Below are positions 4,661 to 58,975 of a stretch of DNA of 64,000 nucleotides, in pieces. The notes under the pieces are model-generated. The model saw nothing but the letters and a program-made list of their open reading frames with translations, was not told where the DNA came from and did no database searches. Numbering within the stretch: position 1 is the first letter of the stretch; each line of letters begins with the position of its first letter. The stretch lies in assembly GCA_047967505.1 (NCBI GenBank), contig CM106538.1. One strand, given 5' to 3'. The DNA comes from Dipteris shenzhenensis (taxonomy: Eukaryota). A program made the translations under genes and the position numbers.

Positions 4661-6748
4661 GGGGCCTTTGTTGATTGGCCATTTTGACCTGAAAAGAAGC
4701 TATTTCTAATTCATGGAGACAAATTTTTTTGTAAAGATCCTTTGACAAAATGTTCGCACCAGAGCCACCATCCAAAAGGACCTCCGGTATGATTAGTGAT
4801 TTGTATTCCACCTAGATTAGGTGAACATTATAATCTACATCTTTAATTTGTGCCGCATTAACTTCGGGGTCAACTTCCCAAATATCCTCATCCTCCTCTT
4901 TTGCCTTATCCATTAGGCTTACACCACCATCTGACAAAGTTTCAATAGCTGTGCTTTGAATTCTAGTACCATATTAAGAAGCTAGTCTAATGTGATATTG
5001 ATTTGAGCCTTCATCAAACTACAAAACAATTCCCCATGGCTCATTGCATCCCCAAGTTTGGGTCTGTTGTGTATGTCATTTGCTGGATAACACCCTCGAG
5101 AAAGAGTATGTTCTTTCAGATCATCAAGCTATGTGCCTTCATGTTGTTCCTTGAGCTCATCACCTTCATGCCAGTCACCTTCTTTAACTGATGCCTCCTT
5201 AGTCATGGCTAGCTTCATACATGGGGGTAGAGTCTTCTCCTCCATCGTCTTTATTTTTATATCAATATTTCTTTTTAAAGGTTGAGAATGTGAGGTATCT
5301 TTTACTCCCCACTTAACCTCCTTTCCTGCATTCACCTTATCAAGAGCTTTTAAGAACATCTTGACAAACTCTATTTTGCTCATTCCAATCAATTGGATGT
5401 TTGCCTTTGGATTCCACATGCAATTTCTTTTCACTAGATATAGGACCCTTAGATCGCATGATGGCAAATGCTTCTGGATAACTTTGTTTCTCTAGCCCCT
5501 CCCCTTCTGGTTTAAAGCCCATATCATCAAAGGACATTGCCAACATTGACTCCAAGTCTTTCTCTCCATGTCCGACTAGTTGTTTCATCTCCTTGGGTGT
5601 GTCACTCGAACAACTCTGCTCCAACTGAATAAGTACAACATTGGCTTGAGCTGGTGGTTGACAAGGTGGATGTTATCCCCCTCTCATTGAGGTGTTTGCA
5701 CCATAACTCACAACTTGGGCCTTGTTGATGTTCAGCTTGACCACAATATGTGCAATTCTGAGAATCATTATTTTGATTTGATTATTGAGGATTATTTCCC
5801 CAATTTTGATATGCATGTCTTCTTCCTTGGTTAGTAAGATCATTCACCCCTAATTGATTAACTATAGATGGTTGTGACACTGCCCCAGTGTTTTGAAGAT
5901 AAGGAGGTAATCTCCCCTTGTAATTTGGACTATACCAACAATTGGTGCTCTCGTGATTCATTTTACCACAAAACTCACATTTAGACTTCTTAGAGGAAGC
6001 GGCTCCTGATAATACCATGCTTTTCAAATGATGTTTGATCTTTTTCTCCAACTTCTCATCTCTTGAAGAGGATTTCACTTTCTTCTTGGAGTTTGGGCTC
6101 TCCTTAGATTTCCCTTTCTTTGATTGCTTGTCTCTTTTACATTTGGTCTTCTTGTCTTCATTATCAGATGCATCCAAATCATCATCATCAGACTCAGAAT
6201 TCGTAACTTCATTCTCACGGTCTGTATCAGAGTCTCCATTCGAATCTATGTCCAAATTGCAATTCTCTGTTTCCTTCCTCCTATTCTTTTTGGATTTTCT
6301 TTTGGTCATTCCCACTCTTCGTTTAGCTCAATGTGTGGCTTCTACCATATTGTCAAAATCATTAGCTCTTGCTAGGGTGTCCCTCCCAGCCACAACACTT
6401 CTTAATTCGGTATTCAAGCCCTTACAAAAGTAATCTCCCAATTGCTCTTGAGTCGGTCTTTGAGGAGCGGCTAACCTTTGATTTAGATTGTGAAACTTTT
6501 GGGTGTAGTCTTCTACCAACATATCATTTTATTTCAACTGTTGAAGCTTTTTGAGAATTGATTCTAGTGTTTTCTCTTGCCAAAACTGTGCAAGAAATTC
6601 CTGCTTTAAAGTCTCATAGCTTGCAAAATGTCCCATGCCATATTGAATGAACCAACTCATTACTTTACCCACCAAAGTGGCTACCAACTGTTCCTTCTTC
6701 ACATTGTCATCAAGTTGTCCTTCAAAACCACTCGCTACCCATCGGGTC
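4661..6748 (-). pseudogene. Decayed Ty3/gypsy gag-protease fragment
   Basis: Gag core (VMSWF..YETLKQEFL..LVEDYTQKFHNL..FCKGL), zinc knuckle CEFCGKMNHESTNC, protease active site VLLDGGSGANIL at ~4750-4790; truncated at both ends. Confidence 0.85.
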
Positions 6749-6805: not shown

Positions 6806-7017
6806 ACCGATTAGCTCAAATCAATGCTTCCCCTCAGCCTTTTTTATTTCCAATGCTAGAGTACAACCTCACCTTTGACATCTATATCTTTGTTTTGATC
6901 TGAGAAGATAGAGAGTAAGTGTCTCTTTAAGCTTCATCTAATGCCCAAATCTCTTCTCTCTTCTTCAATTTTTGGGTTGAGATGTGACCAAAACCAAACC
7001 CCCAGTTTTGTGTCACA
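6806..7017 (+). repeat. 5' LTR remnant of element A (last 212 bp only)
   Basis: Near-identical to 13820-14031; ends TGTCACA. Confidence 0.9.
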
Positions 7018-7132
7018 TCTTTTGCTAGAGACGCTCGGTAGGTTTTGCCTAGGTTTTTCCCATCATAACCTCAAGATCTCATCTTCTTTACAAGCAAAGA
7101 TTTTCTTCTTTTGTGCTCATTTTCTGTGTAAG

Positions 7133-10100
7133 ATGTACAACATTCCAGTGTTTCGTGGATCAAAAGGAGAAGACTCAAGGAGTTACCTTCGAGAATTCAA
7201 TCGAGCATGTCGCTTGACTAGTTGGTCTATGAAGGAACGTGTTGAGATACTTCCGTATTTCTTGGAAGGTGTGGCCTTAACTTGGTATGAGGCCTTGCCA
7301 AAAGATACCAAGGATGATTGGGAAAGCTTGGTCGAGGCAATGAAGGAGAGATTTGGGACATTGGAGTCACCAAATTCCTTGTTATTGCAGCTAGAGAAGA
7401 TTTCCCAAAGGGAAGGAGAGTCAGTTTCAACCTTTGCTATGAGGTATGAGGATTTATTCATCAAGTACCAACAAGATGCTTTGCATATGGTTGAGTCTTC
7501 GTCATTTTCTACAAGAGATTCTAAAGGTTCATGGGCAATGGAACATCTCAAGATGAGCAAATTTGTTTATGGTTTGGATTCTAACTTGCATGGAAAGGCT
7601 CTAAGCAAAAATCCCAATAATTTCAAAGAGGATCTTCGCATTGCTTTGAAGAAGGAGGCGGCCCATCAAATTGAGTCCGCATTTCAGCCATCTATAAGTG
7701 TCATGACTCCGGCACATCGGGTAGAGGTGGCCTCAACATCCTAGGTATTTGCTCCCTCATTGGATCATAATATTGCACAATTGATGGCAAAATTTACTGA
7801 TTTGAAGTTGCATTTAGTGAATGCCAAGCCACCTAGGGCTCCACAAACTGAGGATAAGCCTAGGGATAAAAGCAATGTTACCTATTATGAATGTCAAAAG
7901 AAGGGACACTATCATCCCGAATGTCCAAAATTGAAAAAAAGAGAAGACAAGAGTGTAGTACTCTTAGAAAGAACATGTTCAGAGGAGGAAGATGAGGAAG
8001 AAACTTTGATGCCATTGATGATAAGAAGTCATAAAACTAGGAGTGACGAGGAAGAGGAGGAAGAGAAATAATGGAAACATAAGAAAAAAAAATCATCCCG
8101 AAGAAAGATTGGACAATCTGATTTTCCTCTTGGACAAGGGACTCTTAGTTATGATTTGTTGACTGCACAAATCACATTTGGGTAGGTTTTGGCACTCTCT
8201 CCAAAACTTATGAAGGAATGGAGTAAATTGGCTAGCACTAGGGAGTCTAAGAAAAAGAAGAAAAAGGATAATGGGACACCTATGGCACAAAAGGTAGACA
8301 TAGATGTGGGAGATGATGTACCTGTTGTTGATGTCATCATAGATGGCCAGACTATTTCTTTTGCATACATTGATGGGGGTGCATCGATAAATGTCATGAG
8401 TGAAAAGACAATGAAAGATGCTGACTTCAAGTTATCTTCCCTTAACTCTCCTTATCGCATTAAGTTGGCTGATCATATTAGAGTGAAAAATCTAGGAGTT
8501 GTGAAGAATTTGGCAGTGGATGTGTGTCGAATTTCTGTACCTACAACATTTCAGGTTATTCCTACAAAACCAGATGCTAGGGCTTACCCATTAATCTTGG
8601 GAAGGCCTTGGCTCTGTCAAGTGAAGGCAGTACAAAAGTGGGAGATAGGTGATCTTATTCTCCAAGGAGGGAATAGGAAGGAATGCTACAACATCAAGAG
8701 TCACCACAAGAAGGTGGTAAAGGAGGAAACTTCAACTTTTGAGAGCTTAGAGTCCAAGTCATCTGATCATGAGACAAGTGACACCTCCAAGGAGTCCATC
8801 TCAGAAGGAGAGGTGGAAGGAGTGGTGTTTGGTCTTTGCCTTGGTGTTGATTGGGGGGGACAATCAAGGAAATGGAGCTTCAGAAGGAGAATCATCTTCA
8901 ACCATGTATGAGGAAGTGGTGGATCGCACTAGTCTTCGCCAACAAAATGAGATTCTTCTTGATGAGATTATAAAAGAGATGAATACCTAGAAATGCTTGA
9001 TGGGTTTCCTAATCTGTTTGCAAATAGTTACTCACAGGTGTGCCAAGTTACCTTAGTGGAGCACAAAATTGACTTGAAACCTCAAAGCAAGCCAGTGGTG
9101 CAATAGCTTAGATGGTTGGGAGTGGTACAAGCAGAAGTGCCCAAGAAGGATGTAACTAACTTGCTCCAAGCTAGGATTATTTTTCCAGTTGAGAATTCAG
9201 AGTGGGTTTCTCCAGTGGTGGTTACTCCCAAGAAAGGAAAGAAATGGTGTGTTTGTGTGGACTTTCGCCCTCTGAATGCATTCACAAAGAGGGATTATTT
9301 TCCTCTACCATTTCAAGATGAGATATTGGATCAAGTTACAGGCCATGAAATATATTCAGTATGTGATGGGGTACTCTGGATACTTCCAAATTCAAATTTG
9401 TGAGGAAGATCAAAGGAAGACTTCATTTGTTACACCATGGGGGGTGTATGCATATAGGGTGATGCCATTTGGTTTAACTGATGCACTAGCATCGTTCCAA
9501 GGATTCATGAGCTAGGTATTTGCACCCTACTTGGGAAAGTTCATAAGAGTATTTTTGGATGATTTTTGCATTTATTCAAGCCATGTGGATCACTTCGAAA
9601 AGTTGAGGATTGCATTGAAAAGTATTGATAATGCAAAAGGTTGCCTTAATCCTGCAAAATGCCATTTGGCCAAGAAGAAGGTGGCTCTGTTAGGACATGT
9701 TATCTCAGAGGAAGTATAGAAATGGATCCTGAGAAGGTACAAGCAATCATGGCCCTTCCACCACCTAGTAATGTCAGAGAGGTGAGGGGCATTTTGGGTA
9801 AAACAAAGTATTACCAGTGCTTTGTTAAAAGATGTATCCTATAAATTTATTGACAAAGAAAAATGTATCTTTCCAATGGGGACTAGAGCAAGATGAGGCA
9901 TTTTGTTTGCTTAAAGAATGCATGAGCCAAAGGCCAATTATGCAGCCTCCTAGGTGGGAGGATGATTTCTATGTGAATCCAAGTGTGTCAACTCATTCAG
10001 TGGGAGCTATACTACTTCAGAAGGGTGAGCAAGGACGCATGCAACCAATGTATTACGCAAGTCGGCAACTCAGGGAGGCTGAGGAGAGGTACGGTGAAAT

Positions 10101-12065
10101 GGAGAAAGAAGGTTTATCTTTGGTCTTTGCAGTGAAGAAGTTTAGGTCATACTTGCTGCCTCGCCCTTTTTTCTTCCTTACATCTCAACCTGCTTTACAA
10201 TTTTTGGTTTGCAAACCCAATCCTATTGGAAAGTTTGCTAAGTGGATTTGTGAGCTTCAAGAGTTCTCTTTCACCTTTATTATAGAAAGCACCACTAGAG
10301 CTTCTCTGGCAGATTTGCTTATAGGTAAGGAGGAAGAAGAAGTAACAAAGGCAAAGGAAGACTTAGATGAAGAGTTGGAGACCCCACCAATAGCTTTCAA
10401 GCTGCATTTTGATGGAGCCTTTAGCCCTTCTAGGAAATGTGGAGCTAGGGGGATAATTCTATTTGATCCAGAAGGAAAAGAGGTATGGGCCAAGGGTAGG
10501 CAATTTCCTAAAGCAATATCAAATAATGTGGCTGAGTACAATGCATTGATCTATGGATTAGAAGATTGCCTAAAGGAAGGAGTGAAAGACGTAGAGGTTA
10601 AAGGAGACTCTCAACTGGTCATTAGGCAAATGAAAGGTGTTTATAAGGCACGGAGTCCTAATCTACAAGATCTTTATAAAAGAGCGATGGAGTTAAAGGA
10701 AGCTTTTGAGTTTTGCAAGTTTGTGCATATTCAAAGAAAAGATAATCATCAAGCTGATGAGATGGCTACTAAAGCTATGGCTTCTTTCACTAAAGTTACT
10801 CTTGCATTGATAGATATAGGTTGGCTAGAGCTCCAAGATGTTCAATATTGCTTGGATGAAGGACATTTTCCTCCTAGATTGACCCCTCAACAAAAGCAGA
10901 AGCTCACAAGGAAGGCTCATCCTTATACAATCCTTGGGGATGTTCTATACAAGCAACGTAAAGATAAGGTTCTTAGGAGGGTAGTGAGCTTGGAAGAATC
11001 TAAAAGGATTATGGAGCTGTGTCATGAATGTTCAGGTCACTTTGCTTCAGCTAGCACTACTCAAAAGATCCTTAACACAGGGTATTATTGGCCCCAACTC
11101 AACAAAGATGTCCATGAGTGGTGCCAAAGTTGTGAGGTATGCCAAGCATATGGATGCAAGCAATTGGTTCATGGGCCCTTGAATCCCATTCCAGCATATG
11201 GTCCATTTGAGAGGTGGGCTTTGGATTTTGTTGGCCCCCTTCCTCGTTCTTCACAAGCGAAGTATTATATATTAGTTGCAATTGATTATGCAACTACATG
11301 TACGGAAGCAAAAGCTACTATCAACAACAAAGCAACAACGATGGCATCATTTCTTAAGGAGTTTTTATATGCCCGTTTTGGTTGCCCTTTGGAAGTCCTT
11401 ACAGATGGAGGGAGGTCTTTTAGGAATGACTTGATTGAATCTTTGGTGCACAAATTGAAAATAAATCATGTCATATCAACTCCATATTATCCCCAATGCA
11501 ATGGTCTTGTGGAAAAAACTAATGGTTTGCTTTGTGGGTCCTTGTCTAAGCTAGTAGACACCATGAAAAGGAAGTGGGATGTGCATATACCAGAGGTTTT
11601 GTGGGCTTATAGAACCACTCATTAGCACTTCCTTGGTTTCACACCTTTTCAGCTAGTTTATGGAATGGAGGCCATCTTGCCAATAGAATTGGAAATCTCA
11701 AGCCTTTGTGCGTCTTTTTCTCGATTGCGTAACGAAGAAGAAACACATGCCCAACGTCTAGTACAGCTGGAGACCTTGGATGAGAAGCAGCTTCAAGCAC
11801 TTCAACACTTGGAGGGAGCACAACATCACAAAGCAAGGTATGATGCTCTTACCAAGAAGAAGAAGAAGCCAGAATCAAAGAAGGAAGCTTGATCATGAAG
11901 TTTGATGGTCGTGTGGAGAAGCGGCTAGACAAGAAACTCCTTCGCTGCTGGGAAGGTCCCTTCAGGGTGAAGAAAAAGTTCAAAAATAACACTTATCTTT
12001 TGGAAGATGCAAATGGTCAAGAGGTTCGTGGACGTGCTAATGAGTATTAGTTAAAAGTGTTTTAT
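7133..12065 (+). pseudogene. gag-pol of element A (disrupted)
   Basis: Gag MYNIPVFRG..LEGVALTWY; knuckle YECQKKGHYHPEC; protease YIDGGASINVM; RT WVSPVVV..CVDFRPLN..MPFGL..FLDDF; RH; aRH FDGA..NNVAEY..GDSQL..NHQAD (~10393-10779); integrase GHF..CQSCEVCQ..WALDFVGP..YYPQCNGLVE; WEGPF. Confidence 0.93.
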
Positions 12066-12115
12066 CCGCGGATACCATGGCTAGCAAACCCCCATGCCAA
12101 GCACGGGGATCTGCT

Positions 12116-12128
12116 GGGGGGGGAAAGA
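12116..12128 (+). other. Polypurine tract of element A
   Basis: GGGGGGGGAAAGA immediately before the LTR start TGTGACA. Confidence 0.85.
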
Positions 12129-14031
12129 TGTGACAACAAAAAATGATATCTTGTTTTGAAATCTGTGGGAGGGTTTGTGGGGCCCGCAAGGTGACAAAAG
12201 CTAGCCATGGAGACAAAGAACCAAGAAGCGTGACAGAGAAGTTGGTGGCGGGAGATGGCTCTTTGTGGCTACTCTCATTGCGGCTTGTCAATCTTTTGAT
12301 GTCGACTACTTTATTTCATGTAATCATTAATGTGGGTTTGACACTACTTAGAATAATTAATGAAAATGATTGCAAATACGATTATGAGTGGAGTGCATCA
12401 TTGTAAATACCATGGGCATGAATTATAAATACCTTGGTATAGGGATAGAATGGTTTGAGAGATATGTTATTTGCTTTGTAATTGGGAAAATAGAAATGAG
12501 GCATGTACTTTGAGTGGGCCACATGACTGCATGGCCTCCATAAGGTACTAAAATAATATGGAGAGCACATGCCAAGCACATGGACGGCATGTGGAGGAGT
12601 GTGGAAGAGTGTAAAGTCAAGAGGAATCCTTCTAGAATTCCAAGGTGGTGTATGGAGGATATTGACATATGGAAAAGAGAGGGTCCCTATGGGCTCCAAG
12701 GGGAAAGACTCTTGAATTTCTTAAATTTTAAAGAGTCATGAGGATCTTGTGATGGGACACTTGTCAAAATGTACCTAAAAGGACATTTGATGGTGACCCA
12801 TGTGCTTGTCACCAGGGGGTGAAGGAATCTACTAGCTGAAAATGTAATAAGGTGAAGGAGGGTGAGAATTGCTCTATAAAAGAGACCTCTCTCCTCCCTC
12901 TCCATCATCTGGTTCTTCCCTTCGTAATTATGCCATCACTTGTATCTAGCTTTGCCTATCTTTTCCCTTCTCCCTAGAGCATTAGGCTCTCACTTTGTAC
13001 CCCTCTTCTTGCTTTTGATGTTTTGAATAAAGTTCATGCTTCCTTTTCCTCATCCTTCTTCCATCTCCTCTCTCCTCACTCTAAAGCTTAGTGTACCCAC
13101 ATGAGTGAGTCATTTCTAAATCTGTGTTAAGGGTATTCTCTACTCCCCTAGGCAACCTCAATTTTCCATGTATCTGGGAAGCTAGTTCTCTGCTGAAGGA
13201 GATCATTGCGCTTTCCATAACTGCAGTCGGGTATGAATAGTTTTGACAGTCTTCCATAAAATGGTCATAACTTTCTACTCCGAGCTCCGTTTTGGATGAA
13301 ACTTATATCAAAATCTTTGTCTCTTCAAGATCCATCTATTGATGTATTAAGATATTTGTTCCATTTAGTAAAATAAAAGTTATTGTTGTCTGAGTGGTTG
13401 GGTCTATTGTTTGGAATAGTTTTGAGAACCTTTCGTAAAACCGTCATAACTTTCTGTTCCAACCTTTTTTTTGAATGAAATTGATATTAGAATCTTCGTC
13501 TTTTTAAGATCTATCTATTGATGTGTTCAGATATTTGTTCCATTTAGTAGAATAAAAGTTATTGTTGTCTGAGTGGTCGGGTCTGTTGTTTGGAGTAGTT
13601 TTGAGAACCTTTCGTAAAACTGTCATAACTTTCTCTTCCAAGCTCCGTTTTGAATGAAACTGATATCAGAATCTTCATCTTTTTGAGATCTATGTTTTGT
13701 CCCAACCGTCCCATTCAGCCAAATCAGCCCTATCAATTCAGGCCTTTCACATTAGTTCACATTATGTTGAGTCAAAAGATGTTCTTCCAAACAACAGCTC
13801 GCCCTTACTTTTGGGGCTAACCGATTAGCTCAAATCAATGCTTCGCGTCAGCCTTTCTTATTTCCAATGCTAGAGTACAACCTCACCTTTGACATCTATA
13901 TCTTTGTTTTTATTTGAGAAGATAGAGAGTGAGTGTCTTTTTAAGCTTCATCTAATGCCCAAATCTCTTCTCTCTTCTTCAATTTGTGGGTTGAGACGTG
14001 ACCAAAACCAAACCCCCGATTTTGTGTCACA
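12129..14031 (+). repeat. 3' LTR of element A (1903 bp)
   Basis: TGTGACA...TGTCACA terminal inverted repeat, follows the PPT, TATA-like CTATAAAA at ~12874. Confidence 0.9.
13235..13692 (+). repeat. 179-bp tandem repeat (~2.6 copies) inside the LTR
   Basis: Units start at 13235, 13414 and 13593 (ga(a/g)tagttttga...gtcataactttct...). Confidence 0.9.
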
Positions 14032-25811: not shown

Positions 25812-28800
25812 ATGGAATTCTTCGCCTCTCCCCCCCCTTCCTTTGAACCCCCCGCCCCTCCCTCCTCCACCCCTCCCTCCTCCTCCTCCTCCTCCTCCCT
25901 CGTCCCCCCCCCCCTTCCCCTCCCCTTCCACCCCGAATGGCATCGCCCCAGCGACACCGGCTTGGAAGGTCTGCTTCCTTCCCCCTCCCCTCTCCTGCTC
26001 CACCTTCTCCCTTGCCTCCTGTTACCCCCAGTCTGCTTTGCTCCATTGTCGCCCATGCCAACTCCCCCTCTCAGCAAACGATCCTTCAGATGCAATCGGC
26101 TTAGCATTGATCCTAGCATTGGTCCTGCTGAAATCCGCGACTCTGCCATCCCAGCTTCGATCGACCGTGCATTTTCTCTTCCTATCACTGTACGGCTGAA
26201 TCGTGCTCTGGGTTGTTTTGCAGAGACAATGTGGAGGCTCTCTATACGGCCACAGGAGGGGGTCGACTCTGCGTACCCAGAACGCCCTGGCGAGCCCGAT
26301 TGTCCCTACTACATGCGCACTGGTCTTTGCGGGTTCGGGATCAACTGTAAATTCAATCATCCACCGAACCGCAGACTGGTGAGAAATGCAATCGAAATGT
26401 GATTGTATGTCGGCTATGGTATTTGCCAGGATTGAACCCTTGTAACGAAATTCAAAGCAGAGTTTGCACAGCAAAGCTAAAGCTAGGGTTTTCGTAACAG
26501 TGTGCACACATGAGCGTCTTGCGAGGCACGCCTCGGGAATACCAGAATCGTACTTCTTCGTCGATCGAATAGTAGGATTTTTCTAAATCGGTCCCATCCA
26601 TGGCCATTTCGATGCCTATACTGGCCTTGTGTGTGATTGATTGCAGGCGTCGTCATCGGGAACGTCCCGAAGCAGAGGTGAATACCCGGAGAGGCTTGGA
26701 CAGCCGGACTGTCAGGTGTGTGGCTGCTATGAATGTTATTTTACATACACTAATCTATGCCAAGCCTGATCACTGAGGAAGGTGCTTTCATGCAATGCCG
26801 CCTAAATTTTGTATCCGCGGTGTCTTCCAATCTAAGTAGTTTTACGAGACACGCCCGAAGGCGAAGTCAGCCACTAAAATACTTAAGCTTAACCCCTCCT
26901 CTTCTCTTCTTAGTATTATCTGAAAACCGGTACCTGCAAGTTCGGAGCAACCTGTAAATACCATCATCCACGAGAAAAAGCTGGACTGGCAGGGAGAGCT
27001 CAATTGAATGTTCTCAATCTGCCTTTGCGGCCGGTAAGATGCCCGAAACCGATCCCGATACATGCAAGCATACACGTGTTTAGCAGTTAAACAGTTGTTA
27101 GATTCGTCTTGTCAACGCATTATGCATGCGGAAGCAGTTTTGTGTGGTATTTTACTTGAAAATCTTTTGCCACACAATTCCGTTCAGCAGAAACAGTTAT
27201 CCTTTTCAAAACCTGGGTGGAGCAGCTCGCCAGGGATGTTTATTGTCTGCAAGGAGCATTGCCAGGTTACCATGGACTTGCGTTAAGCAGGAAAAACAGT
27301 GCACTAAGTGTGTTAAGGAAGAGGGGGTACCGCATGCCAGTCTTGTGGTCAAAGAGTGGATGTAGCAGCTAGGGAGCATCTGTGTGGAATTTTACTGTTG
27401 AATTTGTGCAAGGAGCATTGCAAGATTACCTAGATTTGTATTAATCAGGGGAAAGAGTGCAATGAAAAGTGTTAGATTGTTCTAGATTTATCTTCTCAAG
27501 AATGGGGACTAGCAGCTAGCAAGTAATTGAGTGTAAGATTGATCAGGATTTATCTTCTCAAAGGGTGGGTGTAGCAGCAAGGGAAAATGTGTTGGGAATG
27601 TTAGTGTTGAATTGGTTCAAGGTGCTTTGCAAGATTGAGAGCATGGAGGGTTTGATATGGTGGCAGGGCGAGAAGGATTGTGCATATTACATGCGAACAG
27701 GGAATTGCAAGTATGGTGTGACATGCAAGTTCAATCATCCACAACCGGTCTCCATGCCCCCTTCCCCTATTTTTCCAGGATCAGGATCCGGTTCAGCTCC
27801 TGCCCCTCAGGCCTACCCTGCCGGATTGCCAGCTTGGACCATGGCCAGACCTCCCTACTACCCGCCCCCACGCCTCGCTGGACCCTCCAACTTTGCTCCT
27901 GTTTTTCTTCCCTCTCCTCAAAGTGTCCTCTCTGTACCGGGTTGGAGCCCTTACCAAGTAAGTTCCTCACCCTCTTCAAGGGTTTATTGCCGGTCAACTC
28001 GAGGATTAAACTCTTTGAATTTTGTCCTCTGCTGTATTCAGAAGATGCCACCCTTTCTCTCCTGCTTTTGCTTTGACCTGGCTGTTGATCCAGCAAATGG
28101 TCTCGGCATTGGATCCACTGATTCCAGATTGTGATGCTGAGGGTTGCAAAGCACATATTTGGCTTGATTTGCCACTTTTGATTGGATTTGAATATTGCAA
28201 AGCACATGGGTATTTGTCTATGTTTTTCTATGTTTTCTCACGCCTAAAAGGCATCCCCAACCTCCCTGCTGCATGGATGCTGGATTGTCAATTTCCTGCT
28301 CAGAATTTTACATTATGCTTGTTGGGAGACCCGATCAAACAAATTTTCCTGAAATTTTTATGGTTGTCCAGAGTTCTCTCGTAGCACAAGAGGGGCAGCA
28401 ACAAGCACTGCCATACATGTATAGTGCAGCGCCACCGCATGATCCTGTGGCCATGGGCTTGCATGCGGCCTTCCCTCCCTTCATGCAAGGCTCTTCTATG
28501 AGGCTACCGTCACCTTCTTCACCCTCCACAACTGCACCTCAAGAGGCTCTCTATCCTGAGAGGCCTGGGCAACCCGAATGCCATTACTACATGAGAACTG
28601 GGGAATGCAGGTTCGGCTCACAATGCAGGTTTCATCATCCCAGAGACAGAAATATTCCCGCACAAGCTAGTCTTCTGAGTCCTATGGGTCTTCCCTTGCG
28701 GCCGGTATGAGGTTTCTCTTGCAAGTCTTTGGCCTTGCTACTGGATCGGCTTTGTCTTACGTTCAATTTTGGTCAATCAATTGGCACTAGATCGTCTTTC

Positions 28801-29209
28801 TTGTCTTGCATTCTGATTGAGTTTGGTTTATGAACAGGGTCTTCCTCCTTGCACCTTCTACAGTCGATATGGTTTCTGCAAGTTCGGGCCGACTTGCAAA
28901 TTCGACCACCCATTTGTGCATCGTCCCTTTAGTGCCTCATCGCTTGTTGAAGTTCCTGTTGCTCAGTACGCCACGGGGGTGTCTGCATCCGCTGCCCCGA
29001 ATGTTCTTCCTTCTACCGAAACTCCCAGGGAGCTTCTGAGACATCCTTCAACCAGCGCCACAGGAGGCTTCGTCAGCGACCTGGCATTATCCTCATCGGC
29101 AGGTGCTAGCAGGCCATCTTCTTCGAGACAAACTTTGGAAGAGGGTGACGTTTTGTCGGAAGATGCTGCAGCAAGTAGCCCACAAGGCGACATCCACGGT
29201 TCGTCATAA
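25812..29209 (+). CDS. Tandem CCCH (C-x8-C-x5-C-x3-H) zinc-finger protein with 5 fingers, ZFN1/C3H32/33/58-like; 7 exons, ~498 aa
   Basis: Exons 25812-25968, 26224-26378, 26647-26715, 26914-27033, 27667-27957, 28372-28704, 28838-29209. All introns GT-AG, frame continuous (1497 nt). Motifs [104 protein letters not shown]. The exon 6 acceptor is the least certain boundary. Confidence 0.93.
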
Positions 29210-31684
29210 CATCTCATTGGAATTCCTTATGGTGCTCTCGGAGAACGGCGAAGTATTAGAAAGGTGGCAACGAAGTCTACTGTGAGCTGGCTGATTCCTC
29301 GCTCGTCGTCGTCGTCCTTTCTTGCCTTTCCTGCGTGAACGCGTCCATGAAGATTCAAGCTACAACTCATTCATTTTTTGTTCTCATTTTTCCTCCACTT
29401 CGGGTCTAAATAATTGGAACTATAGCAGCCATTCGTCGGTGAGGGCGGCACTGCTTTCTTGTAAGATCCCTGTAGAATGAAAGAAAGCATCGTCCTCGCT
29501 CTCGCCGAAAAGCACATCCTGCTTATTGGATATCTAGCCCAGATAGGTAAATGCGAAGGCGAGCAGACCTTTGGACGGCGACGCACTCCAAGTTCGCAAG
29601 AACCAGCAGTAAAGCAAAAGCTTTTGCCTGGCAAGCTGGATCCGACTAGCCTGAAAGGATCTCGCAAATCTCTGGGACACAAAAAATGTGGGGAAAGGCG
29701 TAGCAGGAGCGGCAAGCAAAGCAATTCTTGGGTTTTGGAGTCGAGTCGTGTTTGGATTCGCCGTTGGATGATTGATGCACTCATTGATGAGGGCGAAAGT
29801 GATCGATCGCCCAAAGCTCTGTTCTGGGATATGAATAAAAAAAGCTGCCATGTCTTCGGAAGGTTTTTGTTGTCGGTGGAGCAAGCGCGGTCGTGTGATT
29901 GAATTGAGATCGCCGACGTCGCAAATGGTTGTGGCCAATGCCGGAATTGTTGAGGGGTGTCCGAAGTGGGAGCGATTGCAACTGCGAAAGTCGTGATGCG
30001 ATCGTCCAGCGCGCCTCGATTCTAGGGTCGCCGTAGTACGTGATGGCAGAGCGCGTTTGATAATTTGATTCTTCTCGTTGCTTGCACCGGCGTACGTATC
30101 TTGAATGTCTTCCACTTTTATACTGTCACTGCGTGCCTGCGTGAATGCTTGGGATGTGCCGATATGCATAGTTTTTCGTCTCGTCCGGAAGGCGTGGGTG
30201 CTCGAAATTTTGCCGTCACAATTTACAACGTCGCTGCCGCGCACAAAAAGCACTGCGCACAGCTGTGGGTGTCCTGCGCGGTGATGTGCTGAACTGCAGA
30301 TGGTGCACTTGGCGCTCCTATGGGTGGGATGGTGTACCACTCGTGCATGTGTGCGTGAGGGCATGTGTGAGTGAATACTTTCACAAAAAACCAAAAAAGA
30401 ATATCTCATGAATGGGCGCGGTATTGGGGAATTGCCAGCAGAGGCCTTTCCCTCGAGTAAAGTGCCCTTTTTGCATGTGCCATCATCGCACCGCGGAGAC
30501 TTACTCGAGCTCTACTGGAGCCCTTGATGTATGTGTGCATCTGTCGTGATCGCGCTTGCTCTTCACATGCCATGAACTCAAAGGACATCAAGTGAATGCT
30601 ACATATTGTGTGCGCTTGTGCTCATTCATAAGACGCATTTGTCTCATTCGTATGACCTCCTTGGACTTATGGGCATGGTGCGTATTGTATATGTATGAGT
30701 GTTCATCATGATCGCACTTGCTCTACACTTGAAGTTGAGCTTGAGAGTTGTCGTGCCCTTACACGGGTCTAAACTCTCCATAAGAACATCACACACTTGT
30801 TAGTGCCTTAAGACTTTCCTTGACAGTTATTGTGCCCTTTGCAGCTCTCCTTGACCAACAATGCTACCTTGTCTTACAACACTACCTCGATTGCCTACTC
30901 AAGGAGACTCACATTCTTTGATTGGATATATTCTAGTCTTACAAAGGTATATTCGAAGTGTGGCCTTACTATGGATTGCTCACTTATTCTCTTTGTGAGT
31001 AGCTTGTGTTGACTCCATGCATGTTCATGAGTCAACACTTGTTCTAAGGCCCTTTATGGATAGGTCTATGGAATATCATGTTGCCATTGAACCTTGGCCC
31101 TACTAGCTCAATGCACATTGCAATTGTGGATAGGGAATTGAAAGCAAGAAGCCCTTTTTGTGTTGATCTAAGGGGTGGGAATCTTGCCTTAGTAGGGGCA
31201 ACCTCATCTACCTAGAGCTTTCTCCACATGTGGGTGTGTTCAAGTCATTTTTGTAATTTTGTAAGGGTCTTCCCTCATGGAGGAGAAAAAGAGGGGCAAT
31301 AAGGTGGCTTTTTTGGCTATTTTCCCCTTGCCAGAGCATATTTTGGAAGTTTTTCCCTTGGTGCATGACACAACAATCTAAGTGGGAATAAGAGAGGACT
31401 ATAAAGAAATCACATCAAGAGTAAAGGGTGTCGCCCTTAGGTCTAGAGCATGGAGTGCTCCTTTCCATGGTACCAGCTATTTCCCACACAATCCCTCCAT
31501 TTCTCATGGTGTATTTTGCATAGCTCCTCGTCATGATGATGCCCCTCTGTCTCATTCAGTGATGGACGTTTCACAACTGCTTGATTCTTATGCGGACATT
31601 ACCAAGCATGGTGAGTGGGGTACGGGTGATTTGATCTCCTTTGATTGCTTAGCAAAGGATTTGTCGGATATTAATGAAAAGTAG

Positions 31685-32879: not shown

Positions 32880-34132
32880 TATCGTTCCTTGCCTTCTTGC
32901 CACCCTCCTCTACTTTCCTATTGCTATGTGGAAGCTTGCAGGAGAGCTTCTATTTGCTTGTGGCTTCGAAACGGAGGAAGGGAATCTCGTTTTTCTTGTT
33001 GCACTAGTGATTTCCAGCTTGCTGCCTACTTTCCAGAGCTTCTTTCTTGCTCGTTTCTAGCTTAGGAAGGGTTTTCTTTGTCTGTAGTTGCTGTGTGTGG
33101 AGTCTCCTACTGAATGAATTTAGTATTATTTTTAGCCAGTTTTAAGCCTAGAACTTGAATTTTGATGCAGAGACTAAGGCAATATTCCTCTTGTGTTCAT
33201 TGCCATCCTTATGGGATACCTTTCATATAGTTGTCAGTAACTCTGCACTTGGTGGAGTATTGAAGTTTGATGATGTTGTGGGTAGCTTGTTGGTCGAGGA
33301 GATTAGACGGAAGTCTATGGATGGCAACAAAAAGGATACAGCCTTAAATGTGCAAAGGGACAGATCACAGTTTAGGGGGAAGTCTCAAGAAAGAGGGAAG
33401 TCTCGTACCAAATCTAGGGCAGAGAACATTGAGTGTTACTATTGTGGCAAGAAGGACCACATGAAAAAGGATTGCAAAAGGATAAGAAAAATAATGCAAA
33501 TTAGGGTGCAAATAAGAAGAAAGAGAGTCCAAGGGAGGACAAAGGAAAAGTGAAGATCGAGGAGATCGATGCAGTTACTGATAATAGTGACAATGGCATT
33601 CTTTTCATGTCTAGTCTATCTACAGAGTTACTTACCACTTCAGATGATGCATATTCTTAGGATTGGATTTTGGATTCCGGTTCTTCATTCCATGTTACTC
33701 CCTATAGGGAATGGATCTTCACTTATGACAGTGGAAAGACAGGTAGTGTGCATCTTGGAGATAACTATGCATGTGACGTAGTGGGAGCAGGTGACAAAGT
33801 TTTCTTTTGCAAATGGGTTTGCATTTGGTTTGAAAAATGTGAGACGTGCCTAAACTGACCAAGAGTCTCATTTCTGCGGATCAGCTAGATGGATCAGCTA
33901 GATGATGCTAGTTTTTAGACCACCTTTGGCTTTCAGAGTTAGAAAATTCAGAAGGGCTCTATGGTTTTGGAAAGAGGTTCCAAGTGTGGGACATTGTATC
34001 CTTTACTTGTACCAAGGGTGTCTAATCATATTGTTGCAATAAGCGACTAGCCAAGTACTTCTTTGTGGCATTGTCAGTTGGGACACATGAGCTAGAATGG
34101 AATGAAACTCTTATGTCGTTTGGGTTATGTAC

Positions 34133-35117
34133 TGCTATGGATAAATTTGACCAAAGTAAAAAGGCATAAATTTGAGTGTGTGTTTGTATGTGTGGCAATA
34201 GTATAATCAAATATGGTGTGCATAGGGCCCAGGGCTAAGGTGGTAGGGCATAACCATGTGCCACCCTTTCACGTAAGAGGACCCATAAGGTGTGATGTAC
34301 ATAATCCATCATAGTAATATTATAAAATGTAAGGTGGCATGGCTCCTCCATGTGTCACCCTCCACCTAAGCTGCATTTAGTGAGATATGGCCCAAAGTCC
34401 ATGGGAGAAGTAATATAAAATAGGTGGAGATGGATATTATATTGGGTTATTCCCTCCATATAGGATAGGCCCATGTGGGGGAGGTATAGAAGGTTTAAGA
34501 GTGCAAGTTAAATAATGGGGAAAGTAGGATGAGGTGGCAAGACTCCTTGTGCTAACCCTCCACTTGTCCTCCTAGATGTTTGAACATATTATAAAATTGG
34601 GAAGAGACCAAGGGAGTCTCATAGACTTGGGATATGGGAGTTGATATATGTGGAAAAATGTGACCAAACGTTATCGCACACAATTGAGAGTGCGAACCGC
34701 CTAGCCCACATGGAAGACTCTTCCACACACACCATGCATGTGGGAGGATGCATTTATTGGAAGAGACCCCCTCTCTTGGCTATAAAAGGAGTGGGCTATT
34801 CCTTGATGGGACACGCTCATTCTTGTAAAGCCACCTAGCTAGTACTTTGATTTCCCCTTCCCTTCTTTTCAAATAAAGCATGGTCCTCTTTCGTTGATGT
34901 CTCCATCTTTACATTCCTCCTCCGATCATGTACATGCTTCTCTTCCCCCACTCCCTTTCCCCTTGTGCCATAGTCTCCCTCTTCATTCCCTCGCCTTCTA
35001 ATCCCTTTTCCCCTCCCATGATAATGTTCGCTCTCACGTTCTCCTTTCGTCTATGGCCCTTGAGCGTCGCGATGCTTAGTGTCTAACCTCTTGTCCTGAT
35101 TTCTTTTCTGGCTAACA
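34133..35117 (+). repeat. 5' LTR of element B
   Basis: TGCTATGG...GCTAACA; matches 41984-42957. Confidence 0.95.
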
Positions 35118-35121
35118 GAAA

Positions 35122-35139
35122 TGGTGTGGTTGCTGGGAT
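35122..35139 (+). other. PBS of element B, complementary to plant tRNA-His
   Basis: TGGTGTGGTTGCTGGGAT versus TGGTGTGGCTGCTGGGAT, the reverse complement of the plant tRNA-His(GUG) 3' end as I recall it. Confidence 0.7.
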
Positions 35140-36494
35140 CGAAATCTCCACGGCTAGTGGTGTAAAATCTGTTACTCCTATGACTGGGTGTGGCTCTGCG
35201 GCCTCTTCTGTGCACAGTTCTCTACTTTTGGACCTCCAAACTGTGTGCCTTCCCTGTCTCTACGGCTACAAAACCTCCTTGCTTCTGCACTTTCAGTTTG
35301 TTTGCTTTCTGCTTGTGGTTCCTACGTGTATTTTGGTTAGCGAATCTTCTGCTCGTACTGATCGCATTTGTAGAACTGTAAGATCTGTGCTTCTACGTGC
35401 GTATTCATGCATCCACTGTGTATATGCGCGTGCATCGCAGACAGATCGTGACAGTTTTTTGGGCTCCTGCATCTTCTGGTCATGGACAGTTTTTCTGGGT
35501 TTCTGTAAAACTGTCACAGACCCCACATTCCCTCTCTCTCCTCTTTCTCTTTCTCTTCTCCTTCTCCTCTTCTCTCCTCTCTTTTTATTAAAGAGTAGGA
35601 TTTGGACCCAAGACCTCCCCCTTCACAAAGGAAGACTTATCATTGGGCCAATAAGTAGGAAGTGATGAAAATGTAATGATTTTTGCTTATATATTGAAAT
35701 CTTGGGAACTGTAACTCTATAACCGTGGGGAGTTTACTCTTGCTGTAAAAAGAAAAAGTATTTTATTTCATGTGCTCTATTCACATCTCCTAATAGATTA
35801 TCGATTCGGAACTTTTCCAAGTTCACTTCATGGACGCACGCCACATGAGGAGGGTGGATATTTATGTCACTTCTCGACGAGTTTAAGGATTTGGTGCTTG
35901 GTCCTCCGCTCATTACGGCTACCAATTAGCGAGATCTCTTTCCTGATCTTCATGTCGGCCTTCAATGGTTGATTGCCCACTGCATTGTTCAAGGAGACGA
36001 CGGGTGGGATGATACACCATGGATGATTCAAGGTGAAGAACTAGTGATACGCTCGGAGAACTTTGATTTTATTTTACTCATTGTGTGGTGATCAAGCTAC
36101 TTGCTGCTTCGAAGGTAATTAGAAGGGTGTCCTTCTTCAAAGGGTGGGATACTCCCTAAGCTTGGGGGGAGATTTGGTGCATCTGCCTATTAATTCTTGT
36201 GGATAAGCTCGTCTTGAATGGTTTATTCTCAATCTCACTACAAAGGTTTCTAGGCCTCGCTCGGCTATGGTTGGTAATGTTTCGACCAAGGAATCCATTT
36301 GTACCTAATCAACCTTTTGTGCCTCATTTCGAGCTTCAAGTTGTAATTCTTTTTAGTCTAAAGATAAACTATCAACAAAGGATTATAAGTTTATTTGGTG
36401 CTGAACGTTTGGCTCAAGTATTGAATTCTTCCCACCCTCTCCTTCTACCTATCTTGGACTAAACTTGGGATGTCCGAATTTTAGTCTTGGTGTG

Positions 36495-37227
36495 ATGACA
36501 TCTTGGATCCTTCAATTCGATGGAGCTTACAAATCTTCGACCAAGGCTGCTGGCGTGGGTGTAAAGCTCACTTCACCAGGTGGTGAGGAGTATTGTTATA
36601 GCAAGTCTGCACTTGCAAGTACTTGCAACCAAGCTGAGTACTCGGCACTCATTTTTGGGCTACAAAAGGCACAAGAACATCACGTCAAGCAACTTGAGGT
36701 GCAAGGAGATTCTTAACTAATGTGTGAACAAGTTAGTGGAAGGTGGAAGGTACGGAGCAAAGGCTTAGTTCCACGACATCAACAAGCATTGGAACTGTGC
36801 CAATAATTTGAAGAGGTAAAAATTCAGCATATCCCTCGAGCTCAAAATATAGTCGCTGATTTCTTGGCACGTGAAGCTTGTACTTCAATCACGCATGACG
36901 CGAGTGGAAGCACCACCCCAACAAAGCTGCAAGCCACGAAGGAGGGTGATCATTTGTAAGAAATGCAAAGGTTGTGGTCATCATGAAACTAAGTGTTGAT
37001 ATGAGTTTACCGACTTCGAAAGATCATCAAAAAGGTCCTCAAGGACATTGCTCAAAAGAAGGATGCCAGACCACACAACCCTTGAAGAAATAGTATGGCG
37101 ATTACAAGAACTGGAAGAAGCTGAAGGTGATGTGCAAGCTCTCCAACTGTTGACATTTGTCATGGCATTCTTGTTTGCCTTGATGAACAACCTCATGCAA
37201 CGCCGTGTCTCTAACCCTCGCTTGTAA
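36495..37227 (+). pseudogene. Extra ORF upstream of gag: archaeal-type RNase H1 plus CCHC zinc knuckle
   Basis: MTSWILQFDGA..TCNQAEYSALIFGL..VQGDS*L..KIQHIPRAQNIVADFLAREA, then after a frameshift CKKCKGCGHHETKC (36955-36996) and a helical/hydrophobic tail. Confidence 0.85.
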
Positions 37228-37454
37228 AGATGGATGCGATATCATGAGGGTTGGTCCTTTTAAGATTGTCTATGAGCAATTCTATGCTAAAGATTCTTCC
37301 CGTATAGTATTTCACAATACACCAGTCATACCCTACCTTGGCTATGTGTGCTTTGTGGATGTATCTTCACCTGATTTTCAGTTCAAGCTTCCTCTTTCCA
37401 TTGTTTGCCCATAGATAAGCCTAATTTCGTCTCTCTCTTTTCCATTTTCCAAGC

Positions 37455-57801: not shown

Positions 57802-58975
57802 TTAGTTTTTAGCCTTGCGTTGAACCCAGGCATGTTTATACCCAGTCTATTAAAGGGGTGCAATGCCCCCCTACTACAATCACAGGGGGTTCCAAAGGGA
57901 GATGATAGTAGCTATTTAGGCTCCCCTTATAGGGGTTTGGAGGAAGCCCTTGCAAAGAAAAAAATACATGAAAATTAATGCATAAGTTGTGTGGTAAAAA
58001 ATGTAAAGTAATATGTAGCTCACATAGCATGAGATCATTGGATATACTACTTATATCTTGTATCTTCTCGCTAGTTGGATAAGAAAAATGGAAGACTAGT
58101 TGCTTATTCGTGGATGTAGACAACACTAGGTGAACCATGTATATCAGTGTCTCTCTTTCTCTTCTATTTTGTGTGCTTTTTGTATTGTGTATTTTATGCT
58201 TTGAATTTTGATTCTCGCATTGTTTCTTTGTTATCATGTCACTTCTAACATTTGGTATCAAAGAGTTTGTTTGAGCAACATTCATTGAAGAAGGTTCTTC
58301 GTTCAAACGAGAGCAATAATGGAAGAAGGCAAGTTCAAAATTGAGAACCTCAATGGTAAGAACTACTAACATTGAAAGATACAGATTAAGTTAAATATAC
58401 TAAAAGAACTATTTCTTGCCATTGGGTGGGACAACAAAGAAGCCTCAGTGTAATTTAGGTGAAAATAGGGAGGTTCTTAACAGAAAGGCACTGGAAACAA
58501 TACGTATGTGTTTAGTAGCATCAATAAATTTCAACGTCCTTAATCAAAAGACAACAAAGGACTTGATGACCACATTGGATACATTGAATGAAAAACCAAG
58601 AGCTTCTAACAAAGTATTTATTATGAGGCATTTATTTAATATAAAGATGTTAGAAGGTGGGTGTATAGCTGATCATTTGAATCAGTTCAATACGAATACA
58701 AGACAACTAAGGTTGTAGGACTAAGCTTCGATGATGAGAAATTTGAGCTCTCCTGAGATTTTGTGCTCATTGCCACAAAGTTGGGACTGCTTGTTGGTCA
58801 TGGCTGTGAGCAACTTTGTTTTTGGATCAAACAGTCTAAATTTTGATGATGTTGGTGTTCTCCTTAGCAAGGAAATGTGACAAAAAAGCACAAGTGAAAC
58901 ATCAAGTAATGCCTTGATTCTTAAGAATAGGAGAAGACAAAGGGAGAGAGGAGAGAGCCCATGGAACCCTACCGC
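57802..58975 (+). mobile_element. Ty1/copia 5' fragment (partial LTR, PBS, decayed gag), copy 2
   Basis: LTR end at 58250, PBS at 58253, gag from 58319: KALETIRMCL..KTTKDLM..ASNKVFIMRHLFNIKM..DHLNQFN..LCSLPQSW. Confidence 0.88.

Follow-up and report, generated by a model that had tools for sequence, protein, structure and literature searches.

An archaeal-type RNase H (aRH) encoded upstream of gag, outside pol, raises the question of whether it belongs to the retroelement in which it lies, what it would do there, and whether such an arrangement is new. An ORF of this kind is found in element B, a broken copy of a Ty3/gypsy LTR element at 34133-42957 of the 64,000-nucleotide stretch of DNA that was analysed (the window). 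Element B is very probably an old, broken member of a Tat-type Ty3/gypsy family with many copies and the published "structure #4" or "pre-capsid" layout, which would read LTR, PBS, long leader, aRH ORF, gag, PR-RT-(dead RH)-INT, PPT and LTR.

The LTRs of element B are direct repeats of ca. 985 nt, starting with TG and ending with CA, and a clean target-site duplication was looked for at the ends of the element and not seen. Between the LTRs, Pfam matches and tblastn mapping recovered the Ty3/gypsy domain order PR-RT-RH-INT (Table 1). All of the single features listed by the preliminary description, i.e. the LTRs, PBS, in-frame stops, knuckle and gag ATG, were found where it had placed them. 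From its residue 1, the gag product aligns with gag of element A, a second Tat-type element of the window (6806-14031, plus strand), over 108 aa (38%, E 7e-18), which confirms 37455 as the start of gag and places the entire aRH ORF ahead of it. Stops or frame changes were present in gag, protease, RT, RH and integrase regions alike, which shows that the copy is old and dead. The insertion of element B split a Ty1/copia element (plus strand), of which 33152-34132 with Retrotran_gag_2, zf-CCHC and Pol_BBD lies upstream and 42958-44960 with SH3_retrovirus and RVT_2 downstream.

Table 1. Features of element B, with coordinates in the window and the evidence for each.
Feature	Position	Strand	Evidence
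5' LTR (TG...CA)	34133..35117	+	94.2% identity to 41984-42957 over 989 columns
Leader, 1377 nt, with 21 ATGs; length differs among sister copies	35118..36494	+	ATG count, contig depth
PBS, starting TGG 4 nt past the LTR	35122..35145	+	read from the sequence
aRH gene, 154 codons and natural TAA; TAA breaks at 36714 and 36804 in this copy	36495..36959	+	RVT_3, PDB matches, sister ORFs
C-x2-C-x4-H-x4-C motif, crossing the aRH stop in +1 frame and closed by TGA; doubtful	36955..36999	+	regular expression
Intact 54-aa small ORF, predicted acidic helix followed by hydrophobic helix	37063..37227	+	sister variants, AF2
gag, with TAG stops and a frame change, and its own knuckle C-x2-C-x4-H-x5-C at 38336-38380	37455..38600	+	Retrotrans_gag E 8.7e-4, below the Pfam cut-off
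Protease region	38819..39340	+	gag-asp_proteas 0.0026 and Asp_protease_2 0.0081, weak, both below the Pfam cut-offs
RT region, in several frames	39218..40135	+	tblastn with aRH-bearing gypsy polyproteins P0023, P0028, P0042, P0025 and P0016
Native RH, predicted to be catalytically degenerate	40136..40702	+	RT_RNaseH_2 E 4e-23
Integrase, 18 nt after native RH	40721..41550	+	Integrase_H2C2 1.6e-5, rve 6.2e-4, element A mapping
3' LTR, with purine tract (PPT) just before	41984..42957	+	repeat comparison

The translation of 36495-36956, with X at the stops, matched Pfam RVT_3 with an E-value of 1e-25 over profile positions 2-123 of 123, and RNase_H with 1.4e-7, and RVT_3 was also the only result of an ESM Atlas lookup. 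The nearest solved structures were archaeal-type RNase H1 (4e19_A with E 2.8e-17, 3hst_B, 2ehg_A, 3aly_A and 3u3g_D), and the catalytic D, E, D and D positions are all present. A complete aRH ORF that follows the PBS and precedes gag within the LTR pair, as the preliminary description had proposed, is thereby borne out by Pfam, PDB and the DEDD residues. With the archaeal-type RNase H1 of 4e19, 3hst, 2ehg/3aly and 3u3g the ORF shares its sequence family and the DEDD core; those are cellular enzymes, whereas the aRH of element B is a retroelement gene.

The closest relatives of the element B ORFs were found in ENA and Logan contigs only. The aRH query returned nine relatives at E≤0.001 among 21 candidates in a large protein collection, including two of 154 aa with 81-82% identity and 100% query coverage, which belong to 90% clusters of 25 and 8 members. 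The cluster members examined included 14 distinct intact sister aRH ORFs of 154 aa. All 14 start with M-[T/S]-S-W-I-L-Q-F-D-G, keep the DEDD residues and end on the same Leu; variable columns numbered 20 of 128 in the domain and 10 of 26 in the C-terminal tail. Since these ORFs are open and have Gln at both sites, the TAA codons at 36714 and 36804 represent private decay of the element B copy, in agreement with the C-to-T decay suggested earlier, and every contig covering 36714 reads C. The TAA at 36957-36959 is in turn the natural end of the gene, because the 14 intact ORFs end at the same residue; what had been taken for a frameshift ahead of the knuckle is accordingly no lesion.

At the DNA level, sister copies were sampled as Logan contigs with at least 80% likeness from two DNA runs (X2 and X4) of organism B. 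In total, 197 (X2) and 318 (X4) contigs fell on 34600-38600, covering 30 of 30 bins, with the depth peaking over 36476-37413; the contigs with C at 36714 number 7 (X2) and 12 (X4). Individual contigs span 36726-37387 and 37385-37619 and hence link aRH, the small ORF and gag. The leader is more variable: depth goes down to 2-10 over 35270-35537, which is poorly shared with sister copies, and single contigs omit 92-559 nt inside the leader, one of them 559 nt (35902-36460). A search for longer relatives, including Logan assemblies, gave 40 proteins from 566 candidates with a best identity of 44% and no fused sister form; identity this low means that, within the element B family, the DNA encodes no larger protein with the aRH as a part. 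Scanning the JGI metagenomes with the aRH alignment produced 62 pattern matches and no relatives. The aRH ORF is thus open and at a fixed place in the sister copies, where the preliminary description had suggested looking, and it belongs to the family as a fixed, free-standing gene, conserved together with its catalytic residues. In an aRH tree, the element B family joins 32 polyprotein aRHs at 87/91, which is not a starred branch, and the aRH of element A forms a long branch elsewhere.

The pol of element B was compared with the 598-aa ORF of element A (9829-11625), in which RH, aRH and INT follow each other. Residues 4-169 of that ORF map to 40205-40702 and residues 325-419 to 40721-41011, and the aRH between them (residues 192-321) maps solely to 36510-36893. 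When the aRH parts of five aRH-bearing polyproteins were taken together with that of element A, the mapping was again confined to one place, 36480-36935. As RH ends at about 40702 and integrase starts at 40721, the pol of element B is without an aRH and without room for one, and the earlier reading of RH running straight into integrase is upheld.

The native RH itself was aligned to the Ty3 enzyme (4ol8, 7q5b), and in it Gly replaces the TTDAS Asp and Ser the RTDH Asp. Both Asp residues we take to be catalytic positions; the RTDH position differs as D or N between 7q5b and 4ol8, which supports one of the two assignments. Judged from the alignment, the native RH is catalytically degenerate and has lost catalytic carboxylates. 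The main text of Biryukov & Ustyantsev 2023 (PMC10508981) describes the native RH as degraded in all aRH-bearing Tat structures. With a degenerate native RH, the separate aRH would most likely supply, in trans, the RNase H activity for reverse transcription, and reliance on it would fit the many intact copies of the ORF. In intact family members, the aRH would be made as a free protein of 154 aa from its own ATG-to-TAA frame, with the 21 leader ATGs counting against easy translation of aRH as well as gag, and we infer that it is expressed, is enzymatically active and gets into the particle.

Between aRH and gag, the preliminary description had noted a tail of about 75 aa following the knuckle, which proved to be a separate ORF of 54 codons with its own ATG at 37063 and a TAA at 37225-37227, unbroken in the element B copy. 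Ten distinct sister variants are exactly 54 aa long with the same start, one of them on 13 contigs, and an eleventh is 59 aa long with its ATG five codons upstream. A divergent relative, P0079 (52 aa), falls into a different 50% cluster with 59% identity over 44 residues, and shares the start and, nearly, the length of the others. Start, length and pattern kept at such divergence suggest coding constraint, as far as one distant relative goes; alternatively, the conservation may reflect a conserved RNA signal instead of coding, and we consider that the ORF is a real, selected gene with a probability somewhat below even. AF2 predicted, from a shallow alignment and with a mean pLDDT of 86.4, an acidic helix at residues 6-21 and a second helix at 23-50, hydrophobic and then basic, and the Kyte-Doolittle mean over the 19 residues 24-42 is 1.78; on this model the product is possibly membrane-anchored. 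Pfam and the Atlas gave no lead for the 54-aa ORF, Pfam found no family in the sister ORFs P0010 and P0012, and an ESM Atlas query with the long sister ORF P0010 resulted in a recognition of 1846 with all matches below 0.9.

That the aRH could instead be a private nested fragment, with a LINE or a host gene for RNase H as its possible source, or else a relic, dead and without a role in the family, was considered because the leader is unusually long and variable. RVT_3 domains occur in plant LINEs too, which also counts for a nested fragment. This explanation is rejected as exceedingly improbable: many sister contigs carry the same aRH ORF in the same context, and, low-complexity runs aside, the leader (35118-36494) shows no likeness to any other part of the window. 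A relic is contradicted by the intact, DEDD-bearing ORFs of 14 distinct variants, and with its native RH degenerate the element needs another RNase H. The arrangement put forward in the preliminary description, an aRH-knuckle protein made by frameshifting or readthrough with the knuckle serving RNA binding or packaging, is to be regarded as very unlikely. The motif does exist at 36955-36996 (CKKCKGCGHHETKC), with a basic run ahead of it, and the CCHC repeats of P0080 align to it (E 4.4e-6). The strict motif occurs five times in the six frames of the window where a back-of-envelope estimate gives about 0.1 by chance; pure chance is on this estimate unlikely, so the motif may be a relic, which is no proof of its use. 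It lies, however, in the +1 frame across a stop that is common to the 14 intact sisters, and its reading ends after 14 residues at the TGA (36997-36999), behind which the frame is open to 37227; reading of the aRH-knuckle junction revealed no slippery site. No Pfam family matched it at E≤0.1, zf-CCHC included, while the gag knuckle of the copia element in the same window scored zf-CCHC 4.5e-5. The strict motif was found in none of the 52 aRH relatives scanned. Of six candidates obtained with the knuckle plus tail as query, three were sister ORFs, and all three cover the tail only, leaving the knuckle uncovered by any sister ORF recovered; an exhaustive representative search gave four proteins, i.e. 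two relatives of the small ORF and two repeat proteins, P0080 and the low-complexity P0081. In all ten sister variants of 54 aa, the small ORF begins only at the later ATG, so that farther upstream their frame must have a stop or lack an ATG. Moreover, a sister type represented by P0010 and P0053, and seen in one X4 contig as well, has a 10-nt insert just past the motif, which puts the knuckle DNA and the tail in different frames, and the contig depth over the knuckle bin (36878-37011) is below that of both adjoining bins. Considering the frames, the motif is not part of the aRH protein, and the two cannot be described as joined.

A fusion of aRH and Gag by splicing, with a donor over the aRH stop and an acceptor ahead of gag, would be another way of carrying the aRH into the particle, and it would then answer the question of the 2023 paper as to how an aRH outside pol works. 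A GTAAG donor-like site overlaps the aRH stop, with GT at 36956-36957, and the best acceptor-like AG is at 37452-37453, 1 nt ahead of the gag ATG. Since the codon start positions of aRH and gag are both divisible by three, joining 36955 to 37454 would keep the frame and remove a 498-nt intron holding the knuckle and the 54-aa ORF. When pyrimidines were counted in the 20 nt upstream of each of the 122 AGs in 35143-37470, four AGs had at least 16, and the one just before gag was the best with 18. Further points in favour are the last aRH residue, a Leu in the 14 intact sisters despite the otherwise variable tail, and the number of ATGs in the leader, which makes plain scanning to gag implausible; gag is also preceded by two ORFs. 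There is also a precedent in Tat elements, the Ogre intron (text of PMC4408406), in which splicing likewise joins two ORFs; the Ogre intron joins gag-pro to pol and was shown experimentally, whereas the junction in element B is predicted from sequence. On the other side, the donor over the aRH stop agrees with only 5 of 8 positions of the plant consensus and is not among the four donors scoring at least 6. In element A, which lacks an upstream ORF, the gag ATG is likewise immediately preceded by a run rich in pyrimidines and an AG, so that the "acceptor" may simply belong to an ordinary leader. None of the ten contig joints listed matches 36955>37454, and the search for longer relatives, Logan assemblies included, gave no aRH-Gag fusion protein of high identity. 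Taken together, a spliced aRH-Gag fusion is improbable, and the same low likelihood is given to its fuller form, in which partial splicing would produce the fusion and the intron would hold a conserved, possibly membrane-anchored, helical 54-aa gene. One X4 contig omits 296 nt (37158>37455) with the right end exactly at the gag ATG. This joint differs from the predicted splice junction, and its interpretation as a processed copy was dropped, as its ends are GT..GC and it was seen once; it may be a chance deletion. Another donor-like site at 36115, agreeing with 7 of 8 positions of the same consensus, could yield a gag-pol mRNA without the aRH.

The preferred reading, a free aRH encoded ahead of gag in a Tat-type family, has precedents in print. 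In Ustyantsev et al. 2015 (PMC4408406), the aRH positions described in the text drawn on here are within or after pol only. The main text of Biryukov & Ustyantsev 2023 (PMC10508981) distinguishes five Tat structures, of which structure #4 comprises the clusters Tat B (four mosses) and Tat C (Selaginella tamariscina). Its layout was named "pre-capsid" by Prokopeva et al. 2026 (PMC13468544), whose main text credits the discovery to the 2023 paper and to Wang et al. 2021 (New Phytol). As an aRH 5' of gag was thus in print in 2021-2023, the claim of a different architecture fails, and element B is a further example. It shares with structure #4 the order LTR-PBS-aRH-gag-pol, the absence of aRH from pol and the degraded core of the native RH; the LTRs, PBS and PPT, the separate conserved aRH ORF, the aRH-free pol and the degraded RH were all found in element B. 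Its probable placement in Tat follows from the layout with an aRH, together with a similarity of 27-40% to polyproteins that carry an aRH and to element A, in a comparison confined to these aRH-bearing sequences. A host other than a moss or Selaginella tamariscina would extend the known range of structure #4.

In the main texts of the 2023 and 2026 papers, the 54-aa ORF between aRH and gag has no mention, and in this respect element B differs from the structure #4 elements described there; the ORF is possibly the sole new item. The word "zinc" has no occurrence in Biryukov & Ustyantsev 2023 (PMC10508981), and searching the literature yielded no more on the subject. Structure #3 of the same paper, known from conifers, Cycas and Ginkgo according to its main text, has a post-integrase aRH in a separate ORF. 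As in element B, the aRH is in its own ORF outside pol and the same question of its action in the particle arises, but in structure #3 it lies at the 3' end and in element B in the 5' leader. How a free RNase H enters the particle is a question raised in the text of PMC10508981. The value of the present locus is in a well-documented family of a rare layout, with many intact aRH ORFs, a degenerate native RH and a conserved small ORF, which is usable for addressing how an RNase H outside pol serves reverse transcription.

Element A belongs to structure #1, which was not found in mosses according to the main text of PMC10508981, and it shares the window with element B, which is a faint pointer, and no more, to a lycophyte or a taxon outside previous surveys as the host. 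The two elements have homologous gag, RH and INT, aRHs of 40% identity, and a degenerate native RH in common; in element A, the aRH is inside the pol polyprotein, and in element B it is excised from pol and placed 5' of gag. These two layouts are 25 kb apart, and element A holds the only other aRH in the window. It is bordered by LTR-like repeats at about 6806 and 13820 with 95% identity, and contains a 179-nt tandem repeat at 13235-13771.

Elsewhere in the window, the minus-strand ORF at 5782-6327 combines a CCHC knuckle (CEFCGKMNHESTNC) with a long run of acidic and basic residues, matches no Pfam family, and is probably gag of yet another element. Direct repeats at 49479-49882 and 57996-58398, 8.5 kb apart and 93-94% identical, probably flank a third element as its LTRs. 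A single gene seen was clearly not of transposon origin, a host-like gene at about 26300-29210 (plus strand); it has four or more C-x8-C-x5-C-x3-H zinc fingers distributed over several exons, and Pfam zf-CCCH confirmed three of these fingers with E-values down to 5e-11.
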